Part shown: positions 1-48,596 of the stretch, one piece after another
How positions within the stretch are numbered: the stretch's first letter is position 1
Layout of the letters: each line of letters opens with the position of its first letter
Source of the DNA: a virus
Strand: one strand, 5' to 3'
Virus record (IMG/VR): IMGVR_UViG_3300017987_000085
Location: 3,937 to 67,936 of that record
Length of the DNA: 64,000 nucleotides
The notes under the pieces: generated by a model
The model's database searches: none
What the model was told of the DNA's origin: nothing
What the model saw: the letters and a program-made list of their open reading frames with translations, nothing else
Position numbers and translations under genes: made by a program

Positions 1-176
1 GGCCGATCAGTTGCTATCCCTTGGTTCCGAAGGGGACGGCATCAACCTGATGGCGGAGCTGTTCGAAGGGGATGCATGACGCTCCGGCAAATTGGCGCAA
101 TTGCCGTGTATATCCTTGTGGTCTTCTTCATCGGGGTGGCAATGGCTCTAATGGAGAATCGAAACCGAGGTCGAAA

Positions 177-410
177 GTGAGCCTCCGGCCGGCGCTTGGT
201 CAGGTCATTCGTGAGGAGAGGCTACGCCAAGGCCTCACCCACGAAGCGTTGGGAGACAGCGGGGGCTTGGCTCGTGAGACTGTGCTCCGGACCGAAACAG
301 GCACAGAAGGGTTGAGGCTCGACACAGTGGAGAGCCTCGCAAGCGGTCTTGGTTTGCCGGTGTCGTTTCTGATTGCCAGAGCGGAAGCAAAAAGGGGTAG
401 CCATGGATAG
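177..410 (+). CDS. XRE-family HTH transcriptional regulator
   Basis: LGQVIREERLRQGLTHEALG...LARETVLRTETG...LDTVESLASGLG; GTG start after GAGG. Confidence 0.8.
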   Translation: MSLRPALGQVIREERLRQGLTHEALGDSGGLARETVLRTETGTEGLRLDTVESLASGLGLPVSFLIARAEAKRGSHG

Positions 411-573
411 AAGCGCCGAAGTATCAGTTCCGCGGCTCATGAAGGAGATGTCGATCCAGGTGACAGTGAAGGGGCGACGAAGGGCTTTGTTGAGATTGCG
501 GATTGCGCGACCGGTCTTCTGCTTGGCAGCGCATCTCGCCGGCTTGGCGCATGCTGAGTTGGTGAAGGAATGA
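403..573 (+). CDS. Hypothetical protein
   Basis: RBS AGGGG; overlaps upstream stop and downstream ATGA. Confidence 0.5.
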   Translation: MDRSAEVSVPRLMKEMSIQVTVKGRRRALLRLRIARPVFCLAAHLAGLAHAELVKE

Positions 574-1586
574 AGGTAGCAATTATCGCCGACGTCCGGG
601 GTTGGGCGTTGGACCACATCGCCCAGGGTATCCAAAAGCACAATCCAGACCCAGGCTTGACGATTGATATCTTCTATGAGCGTGAGCTTCGGGCTCGGCG
701 TTCAGAGATTGAGATGGTTGCCACGTACGATGTGCTCTATCCCTTCAGCCTCTTCCAGGCAAATTTTCTTCGTCGACAGCTGCCAGAGATCGATGGGCAG
801 TACATCACGACGGTGCATATGGGGCCGCTGGGGGGCAATGGCCGACCGGGTACGACGCCACCGGTAGATTGCTATGATCGCATCCTTTACGACGCTGTCA
901 AAGCAGCCAAACGATTGTCGACCGTTTCGCCACAGTTGCAGACCATCTGGCAGGCAGCCCGGCCGGAGACGGCATATCTCTGTGTTGGCGTTGAAGCATC
1001 AATCTTCTATCCAGTAGCGCGCAAGCCACAACACCGCGGAGCCCGGCCGCTGCGTATCGGTTGGGTTGGCAATCCTGGCAAGCCATACAAGCGCTTCGAG
1101 CTGGTAGAAGCCGCATCCGATCTGCCTGGCGTGGAGCTATGTCTCGCGGCATGGAGCAGCGGCTGGGGCAAACCACAGACGGCGGTGCCGCGCACCCTCG
1201 AGCAAATGGGGGATTTCTACCGGGGAATCGATGTGCTGTTGTGCATGAGTGACCACGAAGGGCTTCCGACACCAGCGGTCGAAGCAACAGCATGCGCAGT
1301 ACCGATTGTGTCAGTTGACGTTGGGATCATCCGAGATCTTGTCGATGACAGTGTGACGGGCTTTGTCGTTGAGCAAGACGCTGAGGTGGCGCGCGATCGT
1401 TTGGCTTGGCTGCGCGATCACGAAGCCGAGCGTTGTGCAATGGGGCAACGCATCTACGAACGCGGCAAGGCTCGCTATTGGCCAAACGTTGTGAGCGATT
1501 GGATTGAGTTCATCAAAGGGGGGGAGGTGCAACATGCTCGGTGTCCTATGTCAAGCGTGGCCGCCACCGACGTGGCAAGGGGCTAA
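570..1586 (+). CDS. Glycosyltransferase family 4 (GT-B)
   Basis: LRIGWVGN...K and FYRGIDVLLCMSDHEGLPTPAVEATACAVPIVSVDVG (E-x7-E motif). Confidence 0.9.
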   Translation: MKVAIIADVRGWALDHIAQGIQKHNPDPGLTIDIFYERELRARRSEIEMVATYDVLYPFSLFQANFLRRQLPEIDGQYITTVHMGPLGGNGRPGTTPPVDCYDRILYDAVKAAKRLSTVSPQLQTIWQAARPETAYLCVGVEASIFYPVARKPQHRGARPLRIGWVGNPGKPYKRFELVEAASDLPGVELCLAAWSSGWGKPQTAVPRTLEQMGDFYRGIDVLLCMSDHEGLPTPAVEATACAVPIVSVDVGIIRDLVDDSVTGFVVEQDAEVARDRLAWLRDHEAERCAMGQRIYERGKARYWPNVVSDWIEFIKGGEVQHARCPMSSVAATDVARG

Positions 1587-2550
1587 GGGTTGGCAGGCGG
1601 TTGTCACATACGAGCTCGTCAAAGCATTCTGTGATCTGGGGGTCGATGCGCAGCCGGTAGTCTGGGATGCAACATTGCCTGGGCGGCGGTATGCGTTGCC
1701 GGTGATGGACCATGCGATCGTCGTCACGGAACTGGCGCGAAAGGCTATTCAGGCCGATGGCGAGTATCGAGACGCTCTCCGGGCGAATGTTGACGGGAAG
1801 CTCTGCCTGTACATCGATGCACCGTTTGGCAAGTGGGATGGGTTCGATCTTGCCTTCACCGGCGAGAATTGGGGGCGGAATGAAGACGAGGGCTATCGTC
1901 GAGCACATTCCGAATTCGTGTGGGCTGGTTTTGGCTCGGACGAAGTGTTCCACCCAGCAAGACACCATGACGGTATTCGCCGGATCATCTCGCAGTACCC
2001 AGACATCACATTGCTTGGTCATTTCGAGAAAGAGTGGGAGATGGCTCAGCGGGTGATGATGCGTGTAGCCGAGGAAGACTGGGAGCATATTACGCTGTCG
2101 TATGTGGCGCCGTGGTCGGCAGGGGGATGGGTTGTTGCGCGTAAGACTGAAGATGCGCGTTCCGGCCAAGAGGGCGATCTGTGGACGCCAGTTGTCGGAG
2201 AGGGATGTACCAAGGAAATCTGGCGCAAGTGGGAGGGCGTTGGCCGCTATGAGCCGTACGGGGTGCTCCCGGAGATCTTTGCACAGGCCGATGTCTACCT
2301 TGACCTCCGTGGTGGCGCGCTGGATTTAACACGAATCGATGCAGCCTATGCTGGTCTGTCGGTTGTGGCCCATGCCAAGAACTGGCGAGATAGCATGCAT
2401 GGGCAGATTCCCGCGGTGGAGTGGAAGACGGAAGATGACCTGTACGACGTGCTGCAGGGACCGTTTGACCGCTGGCAGATTGCCACCGATGCCCGCGAGC
2501 ACACGTGGACGAAGGTAGCTCTGCGAATGATCGAGGCGCTGGAGGAGTAG
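1534..2550 (+). CDS. Divergent GT-B-like glycosyltransferase
   Basis: RBS GGAGGTG; GSDEVFHP, LPEIFAQADVYL, RIDAAYAGLSVV, REHTWTKVALRM resemble a GT-B C-terminal domain. Confidence 0.6.
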   Translation: MLGVLCQAWPPPTWQGAKGWQAVVTYELVKAFCDLGVDAQPVVWDATLPGRRYALPVMDHAIVVTELARKAIQADGEYRDALRANVDGKLCLYIDAPFGKWDGFDLAFTGENWGRNEDEGYRRAHSEFVWAGFGSDEVFHPARHHDGIRRIISQYPDITLLGHFEKEWEMAQRVMMRVAEEDWEHITLSYVAPWSAGGWVVARKTEDARSGQEGDLWTPVVGEGCTKEIWRKWEGVGRYEPYGVLPEIFAQADVYLDLRGGALDLTRIDAAYAGLSVVAHAKNWRDSMHGQIPAVEWKTEDDLYDVLQGPFDRWQIATDAREHTWTKVALRMIEALEE

Positions 2551-2975
2551 TGGGTGCATTCGCGGCGGCGGAGAAAGCACGCACGAAAGGCGTGAGCATT
2601 GGCGCGGGAACGTTGCTGTTCGGCACACTTGACAGCAACGTGCATCCCGAACTGATCACCATTGGCAAGGGCACGCTGATTGCCTCCAACGCTAATGTGC
2701 TTTGCCACGGCAGTGTCGAAGGATGGTTGCCTGTTACGGTCGGCGACTACTGTCACATTGGATGGGGAGCTCTGATCCTGCCAGGCGCTGTGATCGGCAA
2801 CAACTGTGTTATTGGTGCGCGCGCCGTGGTACCCAGAGCTCGGCCGATACCCGACAACTCTGTTGCAGTAGGGAATCCAGCGACGGTAGTCAAACAACGG
2901 GACCCTGAGGAGCTGGCGCGATTCAAGCGCAGGATGGAACAGCGGATCAAAGACGACGGAACCGGCGATGGATAG
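2550..2975 (+). CDS. Hexapeptide-repeat (LbetaH) acyltransferase
   Basis: VTVGDYCHIGWGALILPGAVIGNNCVIGARAVV...AVGNPA. Confidence 0.88.
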   Translation: MGAFAAAEKARTKGVSIGAGTLLFGTLDSNVHPELITIGKGTLIASNANVLCHGSVEGWLPVTVGDYCHIGWGALILPGAVIGNNCVIGARAVVPRARPIPDNSVAVGNPATVVKQRDPEELARFKRRMEQRIKDDGTGDG

Positions 2976-3438
2976 ACCATGGCTGGACGGTTGCCATGAC
3001 GGGCGGATGATCACGATGAAACAGGAGAAGCTGCGGGAAGCGGTTCGCGCCGAAGCGGAGAAACGTCGCCGGCGCGGTTCGCATATTGGCGAGAACACTC
3101 GATGCTGGGGCTACACCGACATTGTGTTCCCCGGCAAGGTGACGATCGGGCGGAACTGTGTCCTTGCCACGCGCTCGGCGGTGCTGACTCATGGCGTATT
3201 CGCCACGCTCGAGCGGGGTAAGCCGGTAATGATTGGCGACAACTGTTATCTCGGCTATGGTGCGATCGTCGTACCCGGGGTCATCATCGGTGACAACTGC
3301 GTCATCGGTGCTGGGGCGGTTGTGACGTCGGACATTCCATCGAACTCGATTGCTGTAGGGAATCCGGCACGGGTGATTGGCCAGCGGGATCCGGAGGAGC
3401 TCGCACTGTACATCGAAACCCGAGAAAGAGGAGACTGA
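2968..3438 (+). CDS. Hexapeptide-repeat acyltransferase, paralog 2 (start may be 3007)
   Basis: IGDNCYLGYGAIVVPGVIIGDNCVIGAGAVVTSDIPSNSIAVGNPA. Confidence 0.9.
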   Translation: MDRPWLDGCHDGRMITMKQEKLREAVRAEAEKRRRRGSHIGENTRCWGYTDIVFPGKVTIGRNCVLATRSAVLTHGVFATLERGKPVMIGDNCYLGYGAIVVPGVIIGDNCVIGAGAVVTSDIPSNSIAVGNPARVIGQRDPEELALYIETRERGD

Positions 3439-4100
3439 TGGTTACCAATGCAGATTGCAGAGAACGGATGAAGGATGTTGAGGCTGTCCGAGCAATAGCG
3501 GAGAAGCTGGTCGTGACGTTCGCCGGGCGACTGCCGGTAGCTGGTTGGTGTATGCATGGTGGCACAGCGCTCTCGGCTTATCTCGGCCGAGATAAGCCGG
3601 AAGGCGGCGTGGTGTTGCCCGGAGACAACGATATTGACGTCGGAATCCTCGCTGAGACGGTCTCTCCGGCGGCGCTGGTCGAGGCATTCGACGCAGCGGG
3701 ATTCAGGCACGGCTACTTCTTTCACGACAAGCTATTCCCGCAGGTTGGTGTGGTCCTTCGCTTCTTCTTCGACGGTGTTCCGGTCGATTGCTACTGGTTG
3801 TACAAGCGCGGACGGAAGCGCTGGTGGGTCACGGCGCCACGGGTGGCGCACGTACTTCCGGCGTATCTGTTTGAGCGGCTCGGGACGGCGACGTTCCTCG
3901 GCGTCGAGATGTCGGCGCCGGATCCGCTTGAGGCGTACGTCCACAACAAGTGGAAGCGCGTCGGCAATCGCTTCCCCGGTAAGAGCCAGGGTGGTGAATG
4001 CCTCGACTTTGATTGGGAGTGGCCGATCTACGATGACCAGGCAGCATTTCGTGAGGCGTACGAGCAACGAACAGGAGAGCCGTATCTGAGGAAGTTTTGA
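3438..4100 (+). CDS. LicD/fukutin-family nucleotidyltransferase-fold phosphotransferase
   Basis: GGTALSAY...LPGDNDIDVGI (GT-L...P-DxDxD), VPVDCY, C-terminal FLGVEMSAPDPLEAY. Confidence 0.8.
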   Translation: MVTNADCRERMKDVEAVRAIAEKLVVTFAGRLPVAGWCMHGGTALSAYLGRDKPEGGVVLPGDNDIDVGILAETVSPAALVEAFDAAGFRHGYFFHDKLFPQVGVVLRFFFDGVPVDCYWLYKRGRKRWWVTAPRVAHVLPAYLFERLGTATFLGVEMSAPDPLEAYVHNKWKRVGNRFPGKSQGGECLDFDWEWPIYDDQAAFREAYEQRTGEPYLRKF

Positions 4101-4112
4101 TAGGGGGTAGAG

Positions 4113-4451
4113 ATGGCAAGGTACTGGGCAGACGTGAAACAGCCGGCGAGTGGGATTCTGGGTAGCGCATCGGTCTGCGGGCCAGGTGAGGTAGATGAAA
4201 GTTCCGAAAGACATGTGTTCAAGACCTTTGTGGAGGCTCGTGGCGAGGACCATAATCTCGACCCGACTGCTGCAATGAGAAGAGCTTTGGCCGATGCGCA
4301 GGAACTCGCTGCGCAGATGAACGTTGCATTCTGCCGTGGATTGAACGGTGAGGGTGAGCCGGAGGAGTTGCCCCTCTTCGAACAGAATGCCTTTCAGGAC
4401 GGGAAGCTGGCCCGAGAACAGGGGGTGATGAACAGAGCCCAGACGAACTGA
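4113..4451 (+). CDS. Hypothetical protein
   Basis: RBS AGGGGG; fits operon spacing. Confidence 0.55.
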   Translation: MARYWADVKQPASGILGSASVCGPGEVDESSERHVFKTFVEARGEDHNLDPTAAMRRALADAQELAAQMNVAFCRGLNGEGEPEELPLFEQNAFQDGKLAREQGVMNRAQTN

Positions 4452-4531
4452 CGCACATGGCGGCTTGCTCGCGATGCCAACGATAGACCAAGACGCTGAA
4501 ACCTAGACACACACTGTATGGGGAGGAACGA

Positions 4532-5389
4532 ATGAGCAAGCGACTTGGTTTGCTGTTGGCTGTTTTCTTGATGGGCTTTGCGGTGTTCGCCGTGGCGACG
4601 CCCGCGGAGCTCGTGTTTGTGAACGTACCTTCCGGATCGGCGGAGGATGATGTCCTCAAGTTCCAGCCGATTCTCGACCATCTCTCTGAAGAACTTGGAA
4701 TCCCAATTCAGTACATCGTGGCAACGGACTATGCCTCGGTCCTTCAGGCAATGCTCTATGGCCATGCGGACATGGCGCGCGTCGGAGGATTCACCGCTAT
4801 TCAAGGTGAAGTGCTGTTCGGCGCATTCCCGATTGCCCGCGACATCAAGACCAACACGGGTCAGCCATATGACTACGCCTACGTATTGGCGCGCCCAGAG
4901 CTCGGCCTCGATCCTGAAACACTGACGCCAGAGGATCTGGTCGGTCTCACGATTGCCTATGTGAGTCCAACGTCGACCAGCGGATGCTTGGTGCCGAAGT
5001 GGGCGCTGATGGAGTTCGGGGTCGATGAAGCCGACTTTGCCGAGATCTTCTATGCAGGGTCGCATGATGCAGCGCTCCTAGCGCTCGCGAATGGTACGGT
5101 TGACCTGGCATGCTGCAACGGCTTCCGTCTTGGGAAGAACCTCGCAGCGGGAAACATCACGGAGAGCCAGTATGTGACTGTGCTGCAGTCGCTCCCAATG
5201 CCGACGAACCCGATCATTGTGCGCCCGGGGCTCGGTGAGGATTTCATTGCAGCGTTGACTGGTGCGTGGTTGACGGTGCCAGCGGAGGCTTGTGCTCCGT
5301 TCAAACTGGATGGATTTGCATCAGTGACACCCACGAGCTACGACATGATCCGCGAGCTGATCGAGACGTTTGACCTGGCGCCCGAGTAG
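4532..5389 (+). CDS. phnD: Phosphate/phosphite/phosphonate ABC transporter substrate-binding protein
   Basis: Signal peptide; ATDYASVLQAM..GHADMA, SPTSTSGCLVP, YAGSHDAALLALANGTVD. Confidence 0.92.
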   Translation: MSKRLGLLLAVFLMGFAVFAVATPAELVFVNVPSGSAEDDVLKFQPILDHLSEELGIPIQYIVATDYASVLQAMLYGHADMARVGGFTAIQGEVLFGAFPIARDIKTNTGQPYDYAYVLARPELGLDPETLTPEDLVGLTIAYVSPTSTSGCLVPKWALMEFGVDEADFAEIFYAGSHDAALLALANGTVDLACCNGFRLGKNLAAGNITESQYVTVLQSLPMPTNPIIVRPGLGEDFIAALTGAWLTVPAEACAPFKLDGFASVTPTSYDMIRELIETFDLAPE

Positions 5390-6191
5390 CGGCCTTGTCC
5401 GCTGGGTAGTTATCGTAGCGCTGATGGTCGCTGTCGGGCTCTGCATGGTCGAAACGCAGACCAGCCCCGCAGCGGCCGTCCGCGGCTTGCCGAACATGCT
5501 GCGGTATGTCCGCGGGATGTGGCCGCCGGCATGGGCTGCAATTCCGGGGCTGCTTAAGCCACTCCTCGAAAGCGTCGAGATCGCAGTCGTAGCAATTGCC
5601 TGGGCATCGCTAGGCGCGCTGATCCTAGGATTGCTTGCCGCCCGGAACATCAACTCGATCGGATGGCTCTACCAGTCGGTTCGGATCCTTCTGAATACCC
5701 TACGCGGCATCCCAGCGCTTCTGTATGCGCTGATCTTCGTGGCAATGGTTGGGCTGGGTCCGTTTCCCGGGGTGTTGGGGTTGGCGTGCCACTGCACGGG
5801 CTCTCTCGGTCGCTACTTCGCCGAGGCCTTCGAAACCTCGGATCCTGGATTGATTGAAGCAGGCAAGTCTGTTGGCGCACGGAAGGCACAGATCATCCTG
5901 CATTTTGTGCTACCGGATGTGTTGCCCTTGCTGATTGGCTACATCCTGTACTACTTCGAGTATTGCATCCGTACGTCGACGCTGCTTGGATTTGTCGGAG
6001 CCGGCGGCATCGGCGTGCCGCTCTTGGTGGCCTTGCGGCTATTCCGCACGCGTGAGGTAGCAGCAATCCTGATGTTGATCTTGGCGGCGGTGTTCACGCT
6101 GGACCGGGCCAGCGCGTTCATCCGAAGGCAAATCCTTGGGGGAGACCACACGTTGCATCGGCTCTCTCGATCCCGAAAGAAGGTGACGTGA
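5370..6191 (+). CDS. phnE: Phosphonate ABC transporter permease
   Basis: LRGIPALLYALIFVAMVGLGPFPGVLGL, EAA loop (IEAGKSVGA), FEYCIRTSTLLGFVGAGGIG. Confidence 0.92.
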   Translation: MTWRPSSGLVRWVVIVALMVAVGLCMVETQTSPAAAVRGLPNMLRYVRGMWPPAWAAIPGLLKPLLESVEIAVVAIAWASLGALILGLLAARNINSIGWLYQSVRILLNTLRGIPALLYALIFVAMVGLGPFPGVLGLACHCTGSLGRYFAEAFETSDPGLIEAGKSVGARKAQIILHFVLPDVLPLLIGYILYYFEYCIRTSTLLGFVGAGGIGVPLLVALRLFRTREVAAILMLILAAVFTLDRASAFIRRQILGGDHTLHRLSRSRKKVT

Positions 6192-6667
6192 TGTTAGAGC
6201 TTCTTGTGGGGCTTCCCGGTAGCGGGAAGTCGACCTATGCACGGCAAAAGCTGGCCGAAGCAGTGGCCAACGATCGGCCAGGCAGTGTCGCCGTCGTCTC
6301 GTTTGACGCCATCCGGCGCGAGGTGTTCGGCTGCGGATACGTGCCAGAAGTTCAAGAGTCGGTGTGCGTCCTCTTCAAGCAACAGCTTTCTCTCTTACTG
6401 GCTGGCCGACGGCGAGTGCTTGTCGACAACATGAACTTGCGTCGGGCGTTTCGCGATCGATGGGCGCAGATTGCCCGGCAGTATGGACATCAGGTCATCG
6501 TGACGGAGTTTCGGGGCGACCCCGAGGAATGTTGGCACCGGGTGCTTGTACGCGGGTTGCCGTTTCGCGGTGGTCGAGACGCTTTCGATCTGTTGGTTCA
6601 ACGCAGGGAAGAGGACCGCGCAGAACACGGAGCAAATGGTTCGGATCAGTGGTTTGAGGAGACCTAA
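6188..6667 (+). CDS. P-loop kinase (AAA_33 / polynucleotide-kinase-like)
   Basis: LLVGLPGSGKSTYAR, VVSFDAIR, VLVDNMNL, ECWHRVLVR lid; no ABC signature. Confidence 0.85.
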   Translation: MMLELLVGLPGSGKSTYARQKLAEAVANDRPGSVAVVSFDAIRREVFGCGYVPEVQESVCVLFKQQLSLLLAGRRRVLVDNMNLRRAFRDRWAQIARQYGHQVIVTEFRGDPEECWHRVLVRGLPFRGGRDAFDLLVQRREEDRAEHGANGSDQWFEET

Positions 6668-7365
6668 TGGATGCCGTAATCGTAGACGGGGGAGAGGCAA
6701 ATCGGCTGGTGGGGTATGCCCCGCCGAAGGGGCTTGTTCCGGCAGGTCCGAATGGCGAGACGCTCCTCGAGCTGTTGCTCGATCGAATGGCGGCCATCGG
6801 TGTGCGGCGCAAGCCGACGCTCATCCTTGGCTATCCATCGGCGAAGCGATTCTTGAGACATCCATCGGCGAAGCGCGTTGACGTGATGCTTGACTATGAA
6901 ATGGCCGGACCGTTGCCGGCGCTGGCGCAGGCGGCGAAGCGATTCGAATCGGCAGACGTGGTGATCACGACTGGCGATGCGTGGTTTTCATCGTTGGCTC
7001 AGCTTGGGATGACATCACTTCATGAAACGGAGGCCGAAGAAACGGTGCGCGTATTGACGGCGCCCGCGCAGTTGGGTCGGCCGCAGATCCTTTCTGCCGG
7101 CCAACGCAAGCCAATTCCGTACATCGGTCGGTTTGCCAAGGATGGGACCGTGTCGTATGCCGGCGCGCTACGTGTTGTGCGTTGTCCGGCGTACTGGCGG
7201 GGTGTCCGGGCTGGCGTCAACGCAGGGATGAAATGGATTGTCCGGCCGCTGCTCTACCTGCCGGCGGGGACGGTGAAGCTGTTGCCGGTGACAGGGGAGT
7301 GGGGACATGTCAATACGCCGGCAGATCTCGATCGGGTACGAGAGATGTGTAACGGGAGGAGGTGA
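6667..7365 (+). CDS. NTP-transferase (LicC/MobA/sugar-phosphate nucleotidyltransferase-like)
   Basis: AVIVDGGEANRL...PKGLVP...ETLLE, TTGD, WGHVNTPADL. Confidence 0.8.
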   Translation: MDAVIVDGGEANRLVGYAPPKGLVPAGPNGETLLELLLDRMAAIGVRRKPTLILGYPSAKRFLRHPSAKRVDVMLDYEMAGPLPALAQAAKRFESADVVITTGDAWFSSLAQLGMTSLHETEAEETVRVLTAPAQLGRPQILSAGQRKPIPYIGRFAKDGTVSYAGALRVVRCPAYWRGVRAGVNAGMKWIVRPLLYLPAGTVKLLPVTGEWGHVNTPADLDRVREMCNGRR

Positions 7366-7367
7366 AC

Positions 7368-7472
7368 ATGGCGACGAAATGTCCAGGAGGCAAGATTCGC
7401 AGTGGCGGAAAAGGTCGCGGCCTTGGAAAAGGTGGCGGTAGGGGACCAATCGGTCAACCGGGACCGAAGTAG
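7368..7472 (+). CDS. 34-aa Gly/Lys/Arg-rich micropeptide
   Basis: Strong RBS GGAGGAGGTGA; MATKCPGGKIRSGGKGRGLGKGGGRGPIGQPGPK; below ORF-track cutoff. Confidence 0.65.
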   Translation: MATKCPGGKIRSGGKGRGLGKGGGRGPIGQPGPK

Positions 7473-7511
7473 CGTTGTTGTGTGAATACGCAGCATTCTA
7501 CCTCTGGATGG

Positions 7512-7548
7512 ACAAAGGGCTCGCCTTCGGGTGAGCCCTTTGTTGTTG
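7512..7548 (+). terminator. Intrinsic terminator hairpin
   Basis: acaaagggctcgcc-ttcg-ggtgagccctttgt followed by tgttg. Confidence 0.7.
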
Positions 7549-7577
7549 TGTCCCTCGAGACAGAAGGGGGCCACACC

Positions 7578-8489
7578 ATGCGGATTCTCGTCACCGGCGG
7601 TGCCGGTTTCATCGGATCACACATTGTCGATGCCTATACCCGTGCAGGACACGAAGTGGCTGTGCTCGATGACCACTCCACTGGCAAGCCAGCCAATCTG
7701 AAGAAGGCAGCACAAAGCGGGTTGCTGACCGTGTTCGAAGGCGATGTCTGCGATGCAGGATTCGTCCGTGAGATCTTCGAAGCTTATCAACCCGAGGTTG
7801 TCAACCACCATGCAGCGCGTGTCGACGTTGCGTGGTGCGAAGAACACCCGGAGGAGACGCAAGCGACCAACGTCGACAGCATGGGCGTGCTTCTCTCTGC
7901 GGCGTCGACAGCGCCGGTGAAACGGTTCATCTTCGCAGGTTCAGTTGGGGCATACGGTGAATGCGATAAGCCAGCTATCGAGGATTGGCCATTGATGCCG
8001 GAAGGTGTCTACGGTTGTTCGAAAGCTGGCGCCGAAAGACGACTGACCGATGCAAGCATGCAGCAGACGCCCACTCGAATCATCCTCCGCTACGCCAACG
8101 TTTATGGTCCGCGTGCATCGAACGGTGTCGTGCTGGCTTTCGTGCGAAACTGGATGACGCAAGAGCGTCCGACGATCTATGGTGACGGTGAGCAGGTTCG
8201 TGACTTCGTCCATGTACGCGACGTGGCTCGCGCCAACCTGCTTGTGCTGGATCACCCGGAGTTGCCGGAAGGATCGCTCCGGATCTTCAACATCGCCTCG
8301 GGCCGTCCAGTAACGGTCAATAAGCTTTGGGCAATGGTCTCGGCGGAGCTCAAGGTAGCGAGATCGGCAGACATCGTGACCAGTCGCATCGATGCATCCC
8401 GCGCGGCCGAGGAGCTCGGATTCGAGCCGAGCGAGACGTTGCATTCAGGTGTGATTGAGTTGCTTGCACATTTCGCTGAGGATTTGTAG
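7578..8489 (+). CDS. NAD-dependent epimerase/dehydratase (GalE-like extended SDR)
   Basis: MRILVTGGAGFIGSH, YGCSK (YxxxK), LRYANVYGPR, IYGDGEQVRDFVHVRD. Confidence 0.93.
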   Translation: MRILVTGGAGFIGSHIVDAYTRAGHEVAVLDDHSTGKPANLKKAAQSGLLTVFEGDVCDAGFVREIFEAYQPEVVNHHAARVDVAWCEEHPEETQATNVDSMGVLLSAASTAPVKRFIFAGSVGAYGECDKPAIEDWPLMPEGVYGCSKAGAERRLTDASMQQTPTRIILRYANVYGPRASNGVVLAFVRNWMTQERPTIYGDGEQVRDFVHVRDVARANLLVLDHPELPEGSLRIFNIASGRPVTVNKLWAMVSAELKVARSADIVTSRIDASRAAEELGFEPSETLHSGVIELLAHFAEDL

Positions 8490-8498
8490 GGTGCATCC

Positions 8499-8891
8499 AT
8501 GAGGCAGGTCACGACAGAAGTCTGCGATCGCTGCAACCGGAAGCACGTTGTCGAGGAAAGGATCCTCTGTGATGCATGTAATGGGCTGATCTGTGCTACT
8601 GAACCGAAGGCAGTGGAATGGTTTGGGACTGGTCTGTACTCCGAGGTTCATGAGTACATGCCGCAACTTGACAGTCTTCCGCGGACGCCGATTACCGTGA
8701 CGTACGATCCGAAGCAATCCAATGCCATCTTCCAGTTCCATTTCTGCTGTCTCTCGCATATGCTGCTCTGGCTGCGCCATCTCCCTGAGGGCTACCTACC
8801 GGTAGACGAGATTCGGATCGAAGGCGTAGTCAATGCGTTTGCGCAGTTGCCTGTTCAAGAGATCCCCGATGTAGCCGTTGACGAAGAGTAG
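8499..8891 (+). CDS. Hypothetical Cys-rich protein
   Basis: CDRC and CDAC motifs; follows epimerase in operon. Confidence 0.55.
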   Translation: MRQVTTEVCDRCNRKHVVEERILCDACNGLICATEPKAVEWFGTGLYSEVHEYMPQLDSLPRTPITVTYDPKQSNAIFQFHFCCLSHMLLWLRHLPEGYLPVDEIRIEGVVNAFAQLPVQEIPDVAVDEE

Positions 8892-8918
8892 GCTGTGTTT
8901 GGCCTGCGGAATGCCCTC

Positions 8919-8948
8919 TTGACAAACATCAAACCTTTGATGTAGGAT
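8919..8948 (+). promoter_or_regulatory. sigma70-type promoter with palindromic operator in the spacer
   Basis: TTGACA-18-TAGGAT; perfect inverted repeat ACATCAAA-cc-TTTGATGT at 8926-8943. Confidence 0.7.
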
Positions 8949-9123
8949 GCGTTGCGCTCTTGGGCGTGGAGCAAGGGGAGAAAGGGAACAGATGGGCAAG
9001 ATGGCCTCACAAGCCGCAGCGAACCTGCGGGCGGAAATCACGCAGATCCTCGACACGGAACCCGACACACTGCATGCCTGGGTGTTGCGCGGTGTCTGAG
9101 GAGACGCACAGGGGGGGGATTGG

Positions 9124-10324: not shown

Positions 10325-10508
10325 CTCGACCTACGGTGAACGCATCGAGGCCGCACGCAAGGAGAAGGGCTGGTCGCGTGTTGAGCTCGGCCGACGCGTC
10401 GACCGAACGCCGCAGGCGATCCACATGTGGGAACGCCAAGGCCGCATGCCCCACGTTGCAGTCCGGAGGAAGCTCGAGGAATTGCTGGGGGTGAAGCCTC
10501 CGAAGTAG
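10317..10508 (+). CDS. Cro/XRE-family HTH protein
   Basis: YGERIEAARKEKGWSRVELGRRVDRTPQAIHMWERQGRMP. Confidence 0.85.
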   Translation: MTNSTYGERIEAARKEKGWSRVELGRRVDRTPQAIHMWERQGRMPHVAVRRKLEELLGVKPPK

Positions 10509-10540
10509 GATGGTTCGTGGCGCCATACGCCACGGGGGAG

Positions 10541-11362
10541 ATGGAACATATGGGCACGAACGCCGGGATTGTCATCAACGTTTCGATTCCTTTGACGCTG
10601 TTCCCACAACGACTTGATCACCTGAAATGTGTTGTTGATGCTGTCTTGCCGCAAATGCAGCGCACGGATCGTCTTGTGTTTGTCGATGATAGAAGTTGCA
10701 AAGAGGTCCAGGAGTACCTGGCGTCCGTTGCGGCTGAGAGCCCGTTGCGGATCCAGGTGATCCATCGAGACCTCGCCTCCTTGCCCGAACGGTTGAGCGA
10801 GGATGGTCGACCCTGGCGGTTGGCCTCCTCGCGCAACCTGGGCGTTGCTAAGCTCGGAGATTGCGCGTTCTACGTGTTCCTCGATGCGGATTGCGTGCCG
10901 ATAGAAGGCTGGCTCGAAGCGTATCGGGAGATGCGAATGGCGCACCTCTTTAAGCTCCCGCGAGTAACGTTCGGTCAAACCCAACACCAAGGACTGACAC
11001 ATTCGGAAGGTTCTTACTTGGATCCGCGGCTTTGCGGCCGGGATCCCGGTGACATGGTCCGACGTTTGGTGGCGCTGTTTGAGCGTGGCGGCGGCGGAAA
11101 CATGGCGATTTGTCATTACGCTTGGGAGCAGACAGGTGGGTTCGATGAAGCATTTGACGGCGGGTTTGGCTATGAGGAGACGGAACTTGCGTGCCGAGCA
11201 TATGAACATGGCGGAGAGGTGCTGTACGTGCCGGATGCGAAGGTGCTGCATCTCTACCACTCTCGGACCAAGACACACTTCCACAACATGGAACGAAACC
11301 GGCGGTTATTCATGGTCAGGACGGGGTTGTCGGCGTTCGCACGGAACGTGACTCAAGCATGA
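10541..11362 (+). CDS. Glycosyltransferase family 2 (GT-A, GT7C-like C-terminus)
   Basis: VFVDDRS, SSRNLG, VFLDADC (DxD), GGFDEAFDGGFGYEETEL, VLHLYH. Confidence 0.9.
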   Translation: MEHMGTNAGIVINVSIPLTLFPQRLDHLKCVVDAVLPQMQRTDRLVFVDDRSCKEVQEYLASVAAESPLRIQVIHRDLASLPERLSEDGRPWRLASSRNLGVAKLGDCAFYVFLDADCVPIEGWLEAYREMRMAHLFKLPRVTFGQTQHQGLTHSEGSYLDPRLCGRDPGDMVRRLVALFERGGGGNMAICHYAWEQTGGFDEAFDGGFGYEETELACRAYEHGGEVLYVPDAKVLHLYHSRTKTHFHNMERNRRLFMVRTGLSAFARNVTQA

Positions 11363-13358: not shown

Positions 13359-15017
13359 ATGAAGCGAACGACAACCCTTGACCATCTTGTAGACTGCCTC
13401 TTCGAGGCGTTCGATCCCCGATGGGTGGAGTCCTCAGCCCGACCGGATGTCCAGGCCGTGGTGGATGGCTTGCTTGATCTTGAGGTCAAGCAGATCTGGG
13501 ATGCGTCGAAGGGCGTCATCCGGACGCGACGGAAGCGCCGTCTCGGAATCCGCTTTCCCACGAGCTACGCGGTCAAGTACAAGCGGTGGATTCAGAGTCA
13601 TGTGGACGGTGTTCACGAGATTGCCCAGACATGGGTCGAGAACGATCTGGTGCCGGCACTCGAGGCTCATTTGCAGGAGCGTGGCGACGCACAGTCAAAC
13701 GTTGCTTCCTCACAAGTCGCGAAGCGAGACGCAGTAGACAAGATCAGCGACAAGCTCGATGAACTGAAGAATCTCTTCTATTCGTTGGCAACGGTAGATG
13801 CGCTACAGCAGCAGGTCGAGGACTACTCGCGGATGATGCTCGAGTACTCCAAGCGTAGCTGGGCTCGATCGATTCATCAGATTCGCAAGCTTGATCCGCT
13901 GACCAACGACGCGGCGCTTGAGGAGATTCTGAAAGCCCATGTCCATGAGAACGTCCGGCTGATCAAGTCGATCCCCGAGAAGTACTTCGGTGACGTCGAA
14001 CGTGTCGTGATGGATGGTGTCCGTAAGGGCAAGGGCATCAAGGAAATCACCGATGAGATTACGAAGGTGTATCCGTCGAAGACTGCCGGACTGATTGCCC
14101 GCGACCAATGCGGGTCGTTCTGTGGCGCATTGTCTCGGGAGCAGTTCAACCAGGCAGGGCTGAAGACCTACATCTGGCGGAACATGCAGGATGAGCGTGT
14201 TCGCGGTAACCCCATGGGGCGTTTTCCGAATGCGAAGCCAAGTCACTGGGACCGCGAGGGGAAGGTCTTCGCCTGGGATGAAGCAAACGGCGAAATTCCC
14301 AGCGATGGACATCCTGGCTTTCCGATTGCCTGCAGATGCTGGGCACAGGTCCAGGAGGAGGAAGCGCTTTACGATCCTGAGAACACTGTTCAGCCTGGGG
14401 AGTTCTACGATGAGCTGCCAGAATCGAAACTTCTCGTGCAACCTGGTAGGCCAACGCCGTCGAAACCGAAGAGCTCGGCGAGCCCTCGTTCAAAACCTGT
14501 TGAGAAAGATTCGCTCGAAACGGCAATTGCGCAAGCAACAGCTGATCTGCACCGGCCCAGCAAGCCGCGTGTACGGGAGAAGTGCTGGGTGATTGGTTCG
14601 GGAGGAGAGGTTCGCCTGACTAAGATCGGAGGAAAACACTCCATTGAGCATACGGCAGATGAAGTGCGCGTGATGAGGGATGCTATCTACGTGCATAATC
14701 ATCCGAGTGGTGTCTCTTTGTCGATTCAGGATGTCTATTTCGCGCAACGTGCTGGCATACGCGAGATTCGGGCAATCGGAAGCAAGTACAGCTACTCTGC
14801 CTGTTGGGAAGGGGAGATGCCATCGAAGTTCACCTGGGTAGCAACTGCGCAAGATATTGACCACGCACTGTACCGGAAATACCGAGTTTTGGTGAATAGC
14901 GGCAAGCTGCCGCCGGTGGAGGCGAGCATGCAACACCAACACGAACTGTGGACAGAGTTCGCAGAGAAGATGAAGGATCTAGGGCACAAGTTTGTCTACA
15001 GGAGGTGGCTGACATGA
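13359..15017 (+). CDS. Phage minor head protein (MuF/SPP1 gp7) with C-terminal JAB/MPN-like extension
   Basis: LIARDQ, YIWRNMQDERVR, HWDREGKVF, HPGFPIACRC; C-terminal VHNHPSGVSLSIQD. Confidence 0.88.
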   Translation: MKRTTTLDHLVDCLFEAFDPRWVESSARPDVQAVVDGLLDLEVKQIWDASKGVIRTRRKRRLGIRFPTSYAVKYKRWIQSHVDGVHEIAQTWVENDLVPALEAHLQERGDAQSNVASSQVAKRDAVDKISDKLDELKNLFYSLATVDALQQQVEDYSRMMLEYSKRSWARSIHQIRKLDPLTNDAALEEILKAHVHENVRLIKSIPEKYFGDVERVVMDGVRKGKGIKEITDEITKVYPSKTAGLIARDQCGSFCGALSREQFNQAGLKTYIWRNMQDERVRGNPMGRFPNAKPSHWDREGKVFAWDEANGEIPSDGHPGFPIACRCWAQVQEEEALYDPENTVQPGEFYDELPESKLLVQPGRPTPSKPKSSASPRSKPVEKDSLETAIAQATADLHRPSKPRVREKCWVIGSGGEVRLTKIGGKHSIEHTADEVRVMRDAIYVHNHPSGVSLSIQDVYFAQRAGIREIRAIGSKYSYSACWEGEMPSKFTWVATAQDIDHALYRKYRVLVNSGKLPPVEASMQHQHELWTEFAEKMKDLGHKFVYRRWLT

Positions 15018-47810: not shown

Positions 47811-48596
47811 ATGGGCATGCAGGTCATTGCGGTGGCGAATCAGAAAGGCGGGGTGGCAAAGACGACAACCGTTGCATCGTTGGCGGCAGCCTGGGCGGCG
47901 ATGGGTCACCGTGTGCTGGCGATCGATCTGGATCCTCAGACTTCACTTACGGCAGCCACGCTTGGGGAAAGCTACGCAACGGGCCGCGAAGCCACACCAA
48001 CGGCCTTCGATGCCCTCCAGGGCACAGAGTCGCTTCAATCGTGCCTGTGTGCTGCCTCAGAGGGGTTCTCCGTCACTATCGGGTCTTACAATCTGGTCGG
48101 CGCAGAGAAACTCTTCGGGGAGGATCACCCCGAGATGCGTCTCCGTGACGTGCTCGACCCGGTCCAGAGTGAATTCGATCTCGTGTTGATTGATTGCCCG
48201 CCAGGCCTCGGGATCCTAATGCTCAACGCCCTCACGGCAGCCAATCATGTGCTGATCCCCGTGGCGCCGCGCTACTTCGACATGCGCGGTCTGGCTTTCC
48301 TCCTTGACACGATTGACCGTGTGCGAGAGGCGTTCAACCCAGAGCTCGCGATCCTTGGGATCCTTCCGACCATCGTTCGCCGGCGATCGCGGCACAAGCG
48401 TCAGGTGATCGGCATCCTCCAAGATAGGTTCGGTGACTTACTCCTCGATCCCTCGATCCCAGAAACGGTCCGCTTCTGGGAAGCGCCAAGTTCACTCTCC
48501 TCAATCCTCACGTACGAACCCGACTCACTCGGCGCCCGGGCGTATCGCCAGGTAGCTAAGGAGGTGCTCGAGCGTGTCTCAGTCGTCACGAGATGA
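47811..48596 (+). CDS. parA: ParA/Soj family partition ATPase
   Basis: IAVANQKGGVAKTTT, IDLDPQ, VLIDCPPGLG, NALTAA. Confidence 0.95.
   Translation: MGMQVIAVANQKGGVAKTTTVASLAAAWAAMGHRVLAIDLDPQTSLTAATLGESYATGREATPTAFDALQGTESLQSCLCAASEGFSVTIGSYNLVGAEKLFGEDHPEMRLRDVLDPVQSEFDLVLIDCPPGLGILMLNALTAANHVLIPVAPRYFDMRGLAFLLDTIDRVREAFNPELAILGILPTIVRRRSRHKRQVIGILQDRFGDLLLDPSIPETVRFWEAPSSLSSILTYEPDSLGARAYRQVAKEVLERVSVVTR

Follow-up and report, generated by a model that had tools for sequence, protein, structure and literature searches.

Between its portal and MuF genes, a myovirus-like phage carries a cassette which, at a probability of about one half, is best read as a pathway for import of a small phosphorus compound, its nucleotidyl activation and its LicD-type transfer onto an acetylated glycan. 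PhnD and PhnE would import a small organophosphonate or phosphate ester, powered by a PhnC-type ATPase of the host, and a nucleotidyltransferase would join the imported compound to a nucleoside monophosphate, presumably CMP. A LicD/FKRP-type enzyme would then move the phospho(no) group onto a hydroxyl of a sugar chain that the GT4, GT-B-like and GT2 transferases nearby, together with a GalE-like epimerase, build or modify; the acceptor may be a virion protein or a precursor of the host envelope. Two acetyltransferases appear to have been added in the lineage of the window (the whole analysed stretch of 64,000 nucleotides), and an AAA_33 kinase would be an accessory of the same lineage. Uptake, activation and glycan attachment of a small phosphorus compound are known in bacteria and in a phage seem to be new: in line with the original proposal, literature searches found such a set for bacteria and none for a phage. 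The features of the window are as follows.

72-410, + strand: Xre-type HTH protein, immediately before the cassette (HTH_31, 8.3e-8)
570-1586, + strand: GT4-family glycosyltransferase (Glycos_transf_1, 6.5e-14)
1534-2550, + strand: conserved, probable GT-B-fold glycosyltransferase; ORF open from 1504
2505-2975, + strand: hexapeptide-repeat acetyltransferase 1 (Hexapep, 3.6e-10); start uncertain, 2505 or about 2550
2968-3438, + strand: hexapeptide-repeat acetyltransferase 2 (Hexapep, 9.5e-14)
3438-4100, + strand: predicted LicD/FKRP-superfamily nucleotidyltransferase-fold phosphotransferase, soluble, 220 aa (from its family and an AF2 model)
4113-4451, + strand: doubtful ORF within the 431 nt that separate LicD and PhnD (without a Pfam, NCBIfam or PHROG match)
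4532-5389, + strand: PhnD-family substrate-binding protein with an N-terminal signal or anchor segment (PF12974 Phosphonate-bd, 3e-45)
5370-6191, + strand: PhnE-type ABC permease, single copy (TIGR01097, 240.5 bits vs cut-off 216.7)
6188-6667, + strand: small PNK-like P-loop kinase, accessory (AAA_33, 1.6e-17; phrog_505 polynucleotide kinase, 3.9e-17)
6667-7365, + strand: nucleotidyltransferase of a rare family, 232 aa (NTP_transf_3, 5.5e-8, 33.6 bits vs cut-off 27)
7482-8489, + strand: GalE-like NAD-dependent sugar-nucleotide epimerase (Epimerase, 5e-56; PDB 4zrm, UDP-glucose 4-epimerase, 7.5e-46)
8499-8891, + strand: small Cys-rich protein, conserved, function not assigned (no family match)
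10427-11362, + strand: GT2-family glycosyltransferase (Glycos_transf_2, 1e-5; Glyco_transf_7C, 2.7e-6)
13359-15017, + strand: MuF-like head morphogenesis gene, downstream boundary of the insertion (Phage_Mu_F, 1.9e-12; phrog_324, 8.3e-47)

The source contig (C9) is approximately 68 kb long and falls in a 2.6 Mb metagenome-assembled bin, 88% complete, with no host DNA flanking it. Genes for MuF, head protease, major head protein, tail sheath, tape measure, baseplate and portal confirm the phage origin first suggested for this DNA. The assignment of the phage to a host comes from binning alone. Carriers of the cassette form a small clade of myovirus-like, uncultured tailed phages. The cassette follows the portal gene, its upstream bound just outside the window, both here and in four related phages (L007, L008, L009 and L035), and in L037 MuF comes directly after the portal gene. 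The cluster had been placed just upstream of MuF; MuF does lie downstream, but 4.9 kb beyond the epimerase, the last gene then counted, with seven ORFs in between. One of these is the GT2 gene, probably the distal part of the cassette. Homologues of the Xre-type protein occupy the same position in L007 (78% identity) and L008 (63%), and none was detected in L009.

All larger ORFs of the proposed same-strand run were found on the + strand where they had been placed, and Pfam or NCBIfam models back the calls of GT4, two hexapeptide acetyltransferases, PhnD, PhnE, AAA_33 kinase, NTP_transf_3 and GalE-like epimerase. Successive ORFs overlap or almost touch (-53, -46, -8, -1, -20, -4 and -1 nt), as expected of a largely translationally coupled run, and GGAG-like sites precede most junctions. 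Compared with the L008 homologues, 11 genes have dN/dS values of 0.07-0.16 (dS was saturated for a twelfth); the genes are thus under purifying selection and are not chance ORFs. Two smaller ORFs listed in the original prediction, the hypothetical ORF 4113-4451 and the 44-aa micropeptide 7307-7441, are unsupported as genes because neither has a counterpart in any related locus; the LicD-PhnD spacer measures 431 nt in the window vs about 120-135 nt in L007 and L008.

In divergent relatives, metagenome loci of 35-85% identity, the LicD-type enzyme stays together with PhnD, PhnE and the nucleotidyltransferase as a conserved and tightly packed unit. Six of the seven loci with downstream sequence have a PhnD gene that follows the LicD-like gene at 750 nt or less, the exception being L012 (two further loci ended too early to be counted), and PhnE is followed by the nucleotidyltransferase, with overlapping stops and starts, in all three loci that reach far enough (35-68% identity). 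The proposed co-occurrence of phnDE with licD and the nucleotidyltransferase gene therefore extends to related phages. The small kinase does not share in this conservation. It is found in the window and L008 and is missing from L009 and L010, that is, from two of the four cassettes covering its position, and it is therefore an accessory and not a stand-in for LicA; its PDB matches are 9drz (1.7e-6) and T4 PNK (0.0045). Thus, of the four steps originally thought to be rebuilt here, the importer, nucleotidyltransferase and LicD-type unit stands, and the kinase in place of LicA was wrong as a core feature. A substrate with phosphorus already on it would suit a route that needs no kinase.

PhnD scores 143.6 bits with TIGR01098 (cut-off 112) and stays under the cut-off of TIGR03431. 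Its best PDB match is PtxB (5lv1, 1.7e-24), and its best solved relatives, PtxB and picocyanobacterial PhnD, bind phosphite or phosphate. Residues Y47, S127, T128, S129 and H157 (E. coli numbering) are kept. Unlike PtxB, which binds phosphite, and marine PhnD, the protein lacks their aromatic cap, having Asn or Asp at that column (Asn226 in the window); the roles of the phosphoryl-binding and cap residues follow excerpts of PMC12718374. It also differs from E. coli PhnD in having Phe in place of the amine-binding Glu177, which, like the ligands of its best solved relatives, speaks against the import-and-transfer reading. PhnE has six hydrophobic windows and is the best-conserved protein of the two most divergent cassettes containing it (67% in L009, 64% in L010); its identity to the PhnE proteins of the bin is only 32-36%. 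As none of the 59 ABC-ATPase matches in that bin falls on C9, a PhnC-type subunit would have to come from the host, a need that the original proposal did not mention; both points count against the import-and-transfer reading. In neither the phage nor the bin did a PEP mutase score above the cut-off, and a phosphonate would therefore have to be imported.

The nucleotidyltransferase belongs to a family with only six representatives at E<=1e-30 among 1.84 billion entries. Of 10 family members, 9-10 conserve the motifs GG-x-A-T/N-R-L...PPK and TTGD, which are kept wherever LicD and PhnDE are present. The PDB profile matches, all confined to the shared N-terminal half, are the GlmU N-terminal domain (4.5e-8), ST0452 (9.1e-8), HddC (2.3e-6), LicC (2.2e-4) and PntC (0.082), and distant library matches are HddC-, ManC-, AglF- and archaeal GlmU-like, also IPCT-like. 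Structural neighbours in the Atlas, at TM 0.81-0.84, are LicC-like (0.83/0.81) and IPCT-like, and they include inositol-phosphate cytidylyltransferase fusions as well as aminotransferase fusions; the AF2 model (pLDDT 40.6) was unusable. CMP, the nucleotide to which LicC and PntC join their substrates, is presumed here by analogy.

The LicD-like protein matches no Pfam, NCBIfam or PHROG model by its own sequence, and the original label holds at the level of the superfamily, to which its 15-member family and an AF2 model (pLDDT 83) point. D63, D65, D67 and D117 are invariant in the family; seven of the 15 members, the window copy not among them, have a Pfam LicD match at E<=1, the strongest at 1.4e-6, and a search with the family profile found a LicD-annotated protein (8.1e-7). 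A PDB profile search gave two weak matches, with FKRP second (E 0.14). In structure comparison FKRP came first in both Foldseek (2.7e-7) and VIA (Z 15.4, rmsd 3.2 over 166 residues). LnuA (Z 12.8) and ANT(2'')-Ia (Z 11.2-11.7) are close behind in VIA, which, together with the missing Pfam LicD match of the window protein, would suit an ANT/Lnu-like nucleotidyltransferase that adenylylates a small molecule, a reading that would void the LicD pathway logic. We consider it very improbable, given the top rank of FKRP by both methods, sequence links that lead only to LicD and FKRP, and the three-Asp DxDxD motif, which aligns with DYDVD of FKRP. The top BFVD matches of the model are LicD proteins of giant viruses, and the best 10 comprise five named LicD family, two LicD-glycosyltransferase fusions and three without a name.

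Less probable than the import-and-transfer pathway, though deserving serious attention, is that two unrelated functions lie side by side: an ordinary acetylated glycan, for which the nucleotidyltransferase makes an NDP-sugar used by the glycosyltransferases and epimerase while the LicD-like enzyme uses a host-made donor, and PhnD and PhnE as an auxiliary pair that boosts uptake of phosphate, phosphite or phosphonate during infection. The closest sequence relatives of the nucleotidyltransferase are mostly sugar-1-phosphate enzymes; L035, which has no LicD or PhnDE, still has its homologue next to the epimerase, and in L009 the nucleotidyltransferase and epimerase genes overlap, so that the enzyme might serve sugar activation, and a sugar-1-phosphate is a possible substrate. 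The L035 homologue has, however, lost both nucleotide-binding motifs, and UDP-sugars for GalE-type enzymes come from any host. As to scavenging, the closeness of PhnD to PtxB and picocyanobacterial PhnD speaks for it, and viral phnD and phnE are given as phosphorus auxiliary metabolic genes in a groundwater virome (excerpts of PMC11310336). Against it stand the replaced aromatic cap and the position of PhnD and PhnE: in loci with as little as 35-50% identity they still have the LicD-like gene on one side and the nucleotidyltransferase on the other, with ORFs that overlap or nearly touch, a place that a free-standing auxiliary gene is not expected to hold. Moreover, searches of the phage and of the 88%-complete bin gave no C-P lyase PhnJ and no phosphonatase above the cut-off, and a phosphonate could therefore not be a phosphorus source there.

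Hypermodification of phage DNA, with the glycosyltransferases, the PNK-like kinase and the nucleotidyltransferase-fold enzyme decorating a modified base before packaging, has very little probability. The cassette does sit among packaging and head genes, its enzymes are soluble except for PhnD and PhnE, the window has a PNK-like kinase, and the 30 language-model neighbours of ORF 1534-2550 include one DNA alpha-glucosyltransferase cluster. Yet the kinase is absent from two of the four cassettes, and we know of no LicD enzymes or sugar O-acetyltransferases in DNA modification. Nor was a thymidylate-synthase homologue detected in the contig or bin; the known routes to glycosylated DNA rely on one to produce the hydroxylated or hydroxymethylated base (PMC13326640).

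Returning to the glycan of the import-and-transfer pathway, the GT4 protein is 79% identical to its homologue in L007, 69% in L008, 52% in L009 and 40% in L035. ORF 1504-2550, which probably starts at 1534, has no Pfam, NCBIfam or PHROG match and is conserved in L007, L008 and L009 (dN/dS 0.14). Its original GT-B-like label is backed by language-model neighbours, a lead only: the ESM Atlas contains the sequence starting from residue 11, the clusters closest to it are named GT4 (score 0.97), and the protein is probably a GT-B-fold glycosyltransferase. Acetyltransferase 1 resembles WbbJ (4.2e-16, under the cut-off), and acetyltransferase 2 resembles several sugar O-acetyltransferase models (1e-17 to 1e-20, all under the cut-off); both are absent from L009. 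The epimerase, conserved in L008, L009 and L035, likely starts at 7578. The GT2 protein recurs in L008 (65%) and in L035 (43%, where MuF comes straight after it), and in both phages the homologue of the small Cys-rich protein (76% and 38%, respectively) adjoins it.

Between the portal gene, which lies upstream of the window, and the MuF gene, the phage carries a run of plus-strand genes encoding PhnD and PhnE, a LicD-like protein, a 232-aa nucleotidyltransferase and glycan-related proteins. We give a probability of about 0.5 to the reading that this phage cassette serves the import of a small compound, its nucleotidyl activation and its LicD-type transfer to an acetylated glycan. The gene run was confirmed as originally predicted, and its ORFs and families largely match those named at the time.

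Genes of the cassette and the MuF gene that follows it (window coordinates)
570-1586, plus strand, GT4 glycosyltransferase
1534-2550, plus strand, conserved protein with no Pfam, NCBIfam or PHROG match
2505-2975 and 2968-3438, plus strand, two hexapeptide acetyltransferases
3438-4100, plus strand, LicD-like ORF (family profile and AF2 model)
4532-5389, plus strand, PhnD (PF12974, 3e-45; TIGR01098 over its cut-off)
5370-6191, plus strand, PhnE (TIGR01097, 240.5 bits, cut-off 216.7)
6188-6667, plus strand, AAA_33 kinase
6667-7365, plus strand, NTP_transf_3 enzyme (the nucleotidyltransferase)
7482-8489, plus strand, GalE-like epimerase
8499-8891, conserved Cys-rich protein, with homologues in loci L008 and L035
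10427-11362, GT2 glycosyltransferase, with homologues in loci L008 and L035
13359 (start), MuF

For the conserved protein at 1534-2550 the language-model neighbours were named GT4, which is taken as a lead only. At the junctions the cassette genes overlap by 1-53 nt or are separated by short gaps, and GGAG-like sites precede most of the starts. In comparison with the cassette of the metagenome locus L008, dN/dS was 0.07-0.16 for 11 genes, and dS was saturated for the 12th. Two ORFs previously included in the run, a micropeptide of 44 aa (7307-7441) and a hypothetical ORF (4113-4451), have a counterpart in no relative and are not counted as genes here. The cassette had been placed at 570-8489; the run within these limits holds, but its end has to be moved, as the genes for the Cys-rich protein and the GT2 lie beyond it. 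Scanning for promoters and terminators gave fewer sites than in shuffled sequences.

The window (bases 3938-67937 of the 67,942-bp contig C9; GC 57.4%) belongs to a contig that is phage throughout, from end to end. The upstream 3.9 kb of C9 encodes a small HTH protein, a 580-aa protein with weak matches to large terminases (8dgc, E 0.0038) and the portal, whose four-homologue profile matches the Pam3 portal (8hds, 1.2e-6). The head and tail genes within the window are those for MuF, head protease, major head protein, tail sheath, tape measure and baseplate. There are no tRNAs and no flanking host genes on C9. The same nucleotidyltransferase protein occurs on another contig, of 68,108 bp, and in L008 homologues of the genes at the right end of the window directly precede the terminase genes. 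Taken together with the end-to-end phage content, this indicates that C9 is probably a whole, circularly permuted phage genome. The sequence is present in four DNA runs from three studies, labelled as sediment and seawater metagenomes, all of them possible sources of this DNA.

Contig C9 was binned to a 2.6-Mb MAG (129 contigs, 88% complete, 6% contamination), binning being the only link between the two. No match to window 1-9000 was found by megablast among 50,697 phage records, and pattern scans of IMG/VR with PhnD, the nucleotidyltransferase alignment, the LicD alignment and the single portal gave no relatives. Scans of GTDB species genomes with the LicD and PhnD alignments gave no matches, and the LicD profile was found in none of the other 77 genomes of the order to which the bin belongs. 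A cyanophage identity, prompted by hits to PtxB and Pam3, was dropped since no Photo_RC was detected in the bin. LpxC was likewise not detected in the whole-genome search. A six-frame search with PF12804 missed the C9 nucleotidyltransferase, although a direct scan of the protein gives 33.6 bits, and the whole-genome absences are therefore weaker than those from direct scans; this applies to thymidylate synthase, tyrosine integrase (on C9), PEP mutase, PhnJ, phosphonatase, LicD, LpxC and the photosynthetic reaction centre, and absences from the bin are further limited by its completeness of 88%.

One metagenome scan with the LicD alignment yielded nine loci. The predicted co-occurrence of PhnD with the LicD-like gene was borne out: PhnD follows within 750 nt downstream in six (L007, L008, L009, L010, L011 and L014) of the seven loci with downstream sequence, L013 and L015 not being counted because their sequence ends before the PhnD position. 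The seventh, L012, has no PhnD after the LicD-like gene, and lectin-like and PKD-domain genes are found there instead.

Cassette contents of metagenome loci with PhnD downstream of the LicD-like gene (identity to the window)
L008, whole cassette (61-84%)
L009, GT4, GT-B-like, LicD, PhnD, PhnE, nucleotidyltransferase and epimerase (47-67%), without acetyltransferases and kinase
L010, LicD, PhnD, PhnE and nucleotidyltransferase (35-64%), without kinase
L014, two LicD paralogues and a rhamnosyltransferase-like gene ahead of PhnD

These contents point to the importer, the nucleotidyltransferase and LicD as the conserved core, and to the kinase and the acetyltransferases as lineage additions. The position of the cassette is also shared, as it comes after the portal gene in the window, L007 (portal 82% identical), L008 (65%) and L009 (43%). 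In L035, a 71-kb IMG/VR contig with a portal of 40% identity, a different cassette occupies the same place (L035:11333-20556). Its genes are those for GT4, GT2, a GT4-like protein, a polysaccharide pyruvyl transferase and a hexapeptide transferase; after ORFs without assignment there follow a nucleotidyltransferase homologue (hhalign 98.8%, E 1.4e-16), epimerase, the Cys-rich protein, GT2 and MuF. No LicD, PhnD or PhnE was found in the L035 cassette, the LicD profile showed no relation by hhalign to two unassigned ORFs of L035, and the nucleotidyltransferase homologue there is without both nucleotide-binding motifs. Comparison of the L035 and window cassettes suggests swappable modules for anionic decoration. 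In L037 (portal 24%) MuF comes directly after the portal. Compared with each other, the window, L007-L009, L035 and L037 point to the portal-MuF junction as a variable glycan-gene locus in this clade. If so, the junction would be a site of variable glycan decoration, with the LicD-PhnDE version in the window, L008 and L009 (L007 matches as far as its contig reaches), a pyruvyltransferase version in L035 and an empty junction in L037.

The LicD label holds at the level of the LicD/FKRP superfamily, where it is supported by the family profile and the model, and fails when the sequence is searched singly by HMM. Alone, the protein encoded at 3438-4100 has no match in Pfam, NCBIfam, PHROGs or PDB sequences; in Pfam there was none at E<=0.01 and none at E<=1, and the whole-genome PF04991 search was also empty. 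The family is small, with 14 relatives in 5.8 billion proteins (18 with a profile). D63, D65, D67 and D117 are invariant in its 15-row alignment, and seven of the 15 members match Pfam LicD (PF04991) at E<=1, the best at 1.4e-6. The family profile reaches a protein named 'phosphorylcholine metabolism protein LicD' by its source (8.1e-7), and FKRP is one of its two weak PDB hits (E 0.14), with DxDxD aligned to the DYDVD of FKRP. The AF2 model (pLDDT 83, pTM 0.80) led to the same protein, FKRP being ranked first by Foldseek (2.7e-7) and superposed by VIA-align over residues 297-486 with Z 15.4 (rmsd 3.2, 166 residues, 22% identity). Among the first ten matches in the viral models of BFVD (best E 5.2e-8, TM 0.58/0.60), five are named LicD family proteins from giant viruses, two are LicD-glycosyltransferase fusions and three are unnamed. 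From the alignment and the model, which combine the fold of the FKRP catalytic domain with the DxDxD metal site, the product is filed in the LicD/FKRP superfamily as a predicted transferase.

The nucleotidyltransferase is also a member of a small family, with three proteins, that of the window included, in a word-indexed search and six representatives at E<=1e-30 among 1.84 billion. It matches NTP_transf_3 (PF12804) with 33.6 bits at a cut-off of 27. The nucleotide-binding signature of LicC/PntC-type cytidylyltransferases is G-x-G-T-R...P-K; in the phage family GG-x-A-T/N-R-L...PPK and TTGD are kept in 9-10 of ten aligned proteins. Thus both the NTP_transf_3 domain and the nucleotide-binding signature of LicC/PntC-type enzymes are found here. 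In the PDB profile ranking, GlmU (4.5e-8), ST0452 (9.1e-8) and HddC (2.3e-6) come ahead of LicC (2.2e-4) and PntC (0.082), all of these matches being limited to the common N-terminal half. Weak library hits are mixed, including HddC-, ManC-, AglF- and archaeal GlmU-like as well as inositol-phosphate cytidylyltransferase-like proteins. Our own AF2 model, made from a three-sequence alignment, had a pLDDT of 40.6 and was kept out of the fold searches. For the ESM Atlas model (pTM 0.81) the nearest neighbours, at TM 0.81-0.84, are nucleotidyltransferase-aminotransferase fusions and a 238-aa protein of the 'phosphocholine cytidylyltransferase family' (TM 0.83/0.81); others are fusions to CDP-alcohol phosphatidyltransferase or inositol-phosphate kinase domains. 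As a lead from this predicted structure, the enzyme may belong to the small phospho-alcohol branch of the fold.

The N-terminal segment of PhnD is hydrophobic and has no lipobox cysteine, and PhnE has six hydrophobic windows. PhnD scores 154.9 bits with PF12974 (cut-off 27) and 143.6 with the TIGR01098 subfamily (cut-off 112.05), and stays below the cut-off of the PhnD equivalog TIGR03431 (157.3 against 261.1). None of the 59 PhnC-model matches in the bin is on C9, and in L008, L009 and L010 PhnE is followed immediately by the kinase or the nucleotidyltransferase gene. The pair does not make up a complete PhnCDE-type importer, since the permease gene has no companion gene for a cognate ATP-binding subunit. 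A separate phnD-phnC-phnE-phnE locus is present in the bin on another contig (G000:C6:15157-19536). Recent capture of phnDE from the binned genome was considered and dropped, because identity between the phage PhnE and the PhnE proteins of the bin is no more than 32-36% and tblastn detected no similarity of the phage PhnD to the bin. As a separate matter, the bin carries this phn locus, yet PhnJ was not detected there, nor phosphonatase or PEP mutase over the cut-off. The situation resembles the paradox of picocyanobacteria that have a phn transporter but no route for phosphonate catabolism, as described in the available part of PMC10284923.

The solved structures nearest to PhnD are PtxB (1.7e-24) and picocyanobacterial PhnD (2.1e-21), followed by ArrX, HtxB, E. 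coli PhnD (3e-12) and GpxB (9lf9, 1.6e-9). The roles of the pocket residues, namely those for the phosphoryl group, the amine (Glu177, Asp205) and the tyrosine cap, follow the available part of PMC12718374. In the numbering of E. coli K-12 PhnD, the phosphoryl-binding Y47, S127, T128, S129 and H157 are kept in all four phage PhnDs. The column of the PtxB/marine-PhnD tyrosine cap, which is also that of E. coli Asp205, has Asn in two and Asp in two of the four, and the Glu177 column has Phe in 4/4, followed by an invariant Arg. The 2-AEP amine-binding pair of E. coli PhnD, Glu177 and Asp205, is thus not kept in the phage proteins. Judged from the alignment, the steric cap restricting PtxB to small ligands is absent from phage PhnD, and the predicted pocket differs from that of the AEP-binding E. 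coli protein.

According to the proposed mechanism, PhnD and PhnE, powered by a host PhnC-type ATPase, would import a small compound already carrying phosphorus. The nucleotidyltransferase would activate the imported compound, and the LicD-type enzyme would move it to a sugar of a glycan built by the GT4, GT-B-like and GT2 enzymes. GalE would provide the sugar epimer and, in the lineage of the window, the two acetyltransferases would O-acetylate the glycan. That some cassettes do without a kinase speaks for a phosphonate or phosphate ester as the compound rather than an unphosphorylated alcohol. The searches for PEP mutase, the C-P lyase PhnJ and phosphonatase gave nothing over the cut-off in the phage or in the bin (88% complete), the best PEP_mutase match in the whole bin, on another contig, having 22.4 bits against a cut-off of 31.5. 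Within the limits of such a bin, this suggests that phosphonate is neither made nor used as food there.

By hydrophobicity, all transferases of the cassette are soluble and it encodes no membrane protein besides PhnD and PhnE, hence probably no flippase, polymerase or initiating transferase. Soluble transferases and the lack of export machinery point to an acceptor that is either cytoplasmic, that is, virion proteins, or a host lipid-linked precursor. Because the cassette lies in the head module, a virion protein is the likelier of the two; no Ser/Thr-rich tails were seen in the structural proteins. A bolder proposal is that the phages decorate their own particles, with the soluble glycosyltransferases, the acetyltransferases and the LicD-type enzyme, all encoded among the head genes, building a glycan on a virion protein and capping it with a phosphonate or phosphoester. 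This compound would be scavenged from the surroundings by the phage's own PhnD and PhnE, the host ATPase being hijacked, and relatives such as L035 would swap the module for pyruvylation. This we consider speculative and rather improbable.

Another explanation is that an ordinary glycan cassette happens to stand beside a phosphorus-uptake pair of auxiliary metabolic genes (AMGs), PhnD and PhnE. The sequence relatives of the nucleotidyltransferase are mainly sugar-1-phosphate enzymes, and in L035 its homologue stands beside an epimerase without LicD or PhnDE. In addition, relatives of PhnD bind phosphite or phosphate, and viral phnD and phnE are listed as AMGs in the part of PMC11310336 available. 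However, PhnD and PhnE are sandwiched in operon-like fashion in divergent loci, and this explanation seems possible but somewhat unlikely. It is very improbable that the cassette hypermodifies phage DNA, since the glycosyl-DNA routes known from the available part of PMC13326640 need a thymidylate-synthase homologue and none was detected in the whole-genome search. The 220-aa LicD-like protein might instead be an enzyme of the ANT/Lnu type, as the runners-up to FKRP in VIA-align were LnuA (Z 12.8) and ANT(2'') (Z 11.2-11.7), but all sequence links go to LicD and we hold this to be highly unlikely.

The reading of the cassette as a route of import, activation and transfer invites comparison with the lic pathway, in which LicB is the choline permease, LicA the choline kinase, LicC the CTP:phosphocholine cytidylyltransferase and LicD the phosphocholine transferase (PMC6697681, available part). 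Common to both would be the import of a small head group, its activation with a nucleotide and its transfer onto a glycan by a LicD-family enzyme, and the phage has both an enzyme of the LicD superfamily and an NTP_transf_3 enzyme of LicC size. In contrast, the phage importer is a PhnD/PhnE ABC half-system and not a LicB-type permease, there is no LicA of the choline-kinase fold, and the only kinase is AAA_33/PNK-like and missing in two of four cassettes (L009 and L010). Pfam and NCBIfam scans found neither LicB-type permease nor LicA families among the cassette ORFs. The genes are, moreover, phage-borne and lie inside a head-gene module. Of the lic-like pathway in the original prediction, with PhnDE as importer and the AAA_33 kinase in the place of LicA, the logic of import, activation and transfer is retained; without LicB and LicA, and with a kinase that is not universal, the cassette is not a lic operon.

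Pnt (phosphonyl tailoring) clusters combine Ppm-Ppd-AEPT with the AEP cytidylyltransferase PntC (PMC6697681 and PMC8942020, available parts), Ppm being PEP mutase and AEP 2-aminoethylphosphonate. The phage cassette resembles them in nucleotidyl activation without a kinase, in the presumed hand-over to a glycan and in the LicC-like size and fold of the enzyme. It differs in that no PEP mutase or other biosynthetic gene is among its ORFs, an importer standing in their place, and PntC (6pd1) matches the phage nucleotidyltransferase profile weakly (E 0.082). The cassette thus follows lic/Pnt logic yet belongs to neither, having no LicB, no LicA and no Ppm. FKRP and fukutin, the CDP-ribitol:ribitol-phosphate transferases (6kal, 6kam), are the best structural match of the 220-aa protein and have DxDxD in common with it, but the phage protein is prokaryotic-viral and consists of the catalytic domain only, with no stem domain. 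The PhnT-family importers include PhnCDE for 2-AEP, PtxABC for phosphite, picocyanobacterial PhnD1 and GpxABCD for glycerol-1/3-phosphate (PMC12718374, available part). Phage PhnD and PhnE share family membership and the phosphoryl head-group residues with them, and differ in having no ATPase gene, a single permease gene, Asn/Asp for the tyrosine cap and Phe at the Glu177 column with the invariant Arg beside it. This combination in the tail pocket matches no characterised member aligned, GpxB not being among those aligned.

Among viruses, one giant-virus MAG (n = 1) has an AEP pathway next to amino-sugar genes, and no Ppm is reported from 364 huge-phage genomes (both PMC8942020, available part). 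Viral phnD and phnE have been counted as phosphorus AMGs in a virome survey (PMC11310336, available part). Thus phnD/phnE, LicD-family genes and one phosphonoglycan-like cluster are each carried by viruses, but none of the precedents in the available parts of PMC11310336 and PMC8942020 joins importer, nucleotidyltransferase and LicD in one tailed-phage operon. No description of a phage operon joining these parts was found in the literature searched, the coverage of which is incomplete.

If the proposed route is correct, the phage would have a full pathway for salvaging a head group that bears phosphorus and attaching it, and surface tailoring of the lic/Pnt type would reach beyond bacteria into tailed phages. 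Viral phnD and phnE, which are scored as phosphorus-acquisition AMGs (PMC11310336, available part), would also gain a definite role other than nutrition. The PhnD-PhnE pair without ATPase would then be a testable example of a virus that supplies its own specificity components to an ABC motor of the host. Indeed, recombinant proteins allow each step to be tested, although phage and host are both uncultured.

Several other features of the genome are worth recording. A ParA/AAA_31 partition ATPase is encoded at 47811-48596 (1.1e-45), and the whole-genome search detected no tyrosine integrase on C9; persistence as a plasmid-like prophage and a strictly lytic life are both possible. An ASCH-domain ORF followed by a PAPS_reduct-domain ORF (62242-63359) lies near the right end of the genome, and in L008 nothing equivalent to the region of approximately 61.4-64 kb is present between the homologous genes and terS. 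Another weak GT2/GT21-like ORF (57992-58999) stands well apart from the cassette, in a region of genes for replication and regulation. The 401-aa protein at 54252-55457 has a C-terminal domain like the N-terminal domain of DnaA (1.2e-8) and is without a PHROG match. Of the 647-aa protein at 21066-23009, only residues 228-632 match head maturation protease families, the N-terminal 230 residues having no assignment. Finally, another contig of the bin codes, at G000:C45:15746-16111, for a segment with 63% identity to 123 residues of MuF, which suggests a second related phage or prophage fragment in the same bin.
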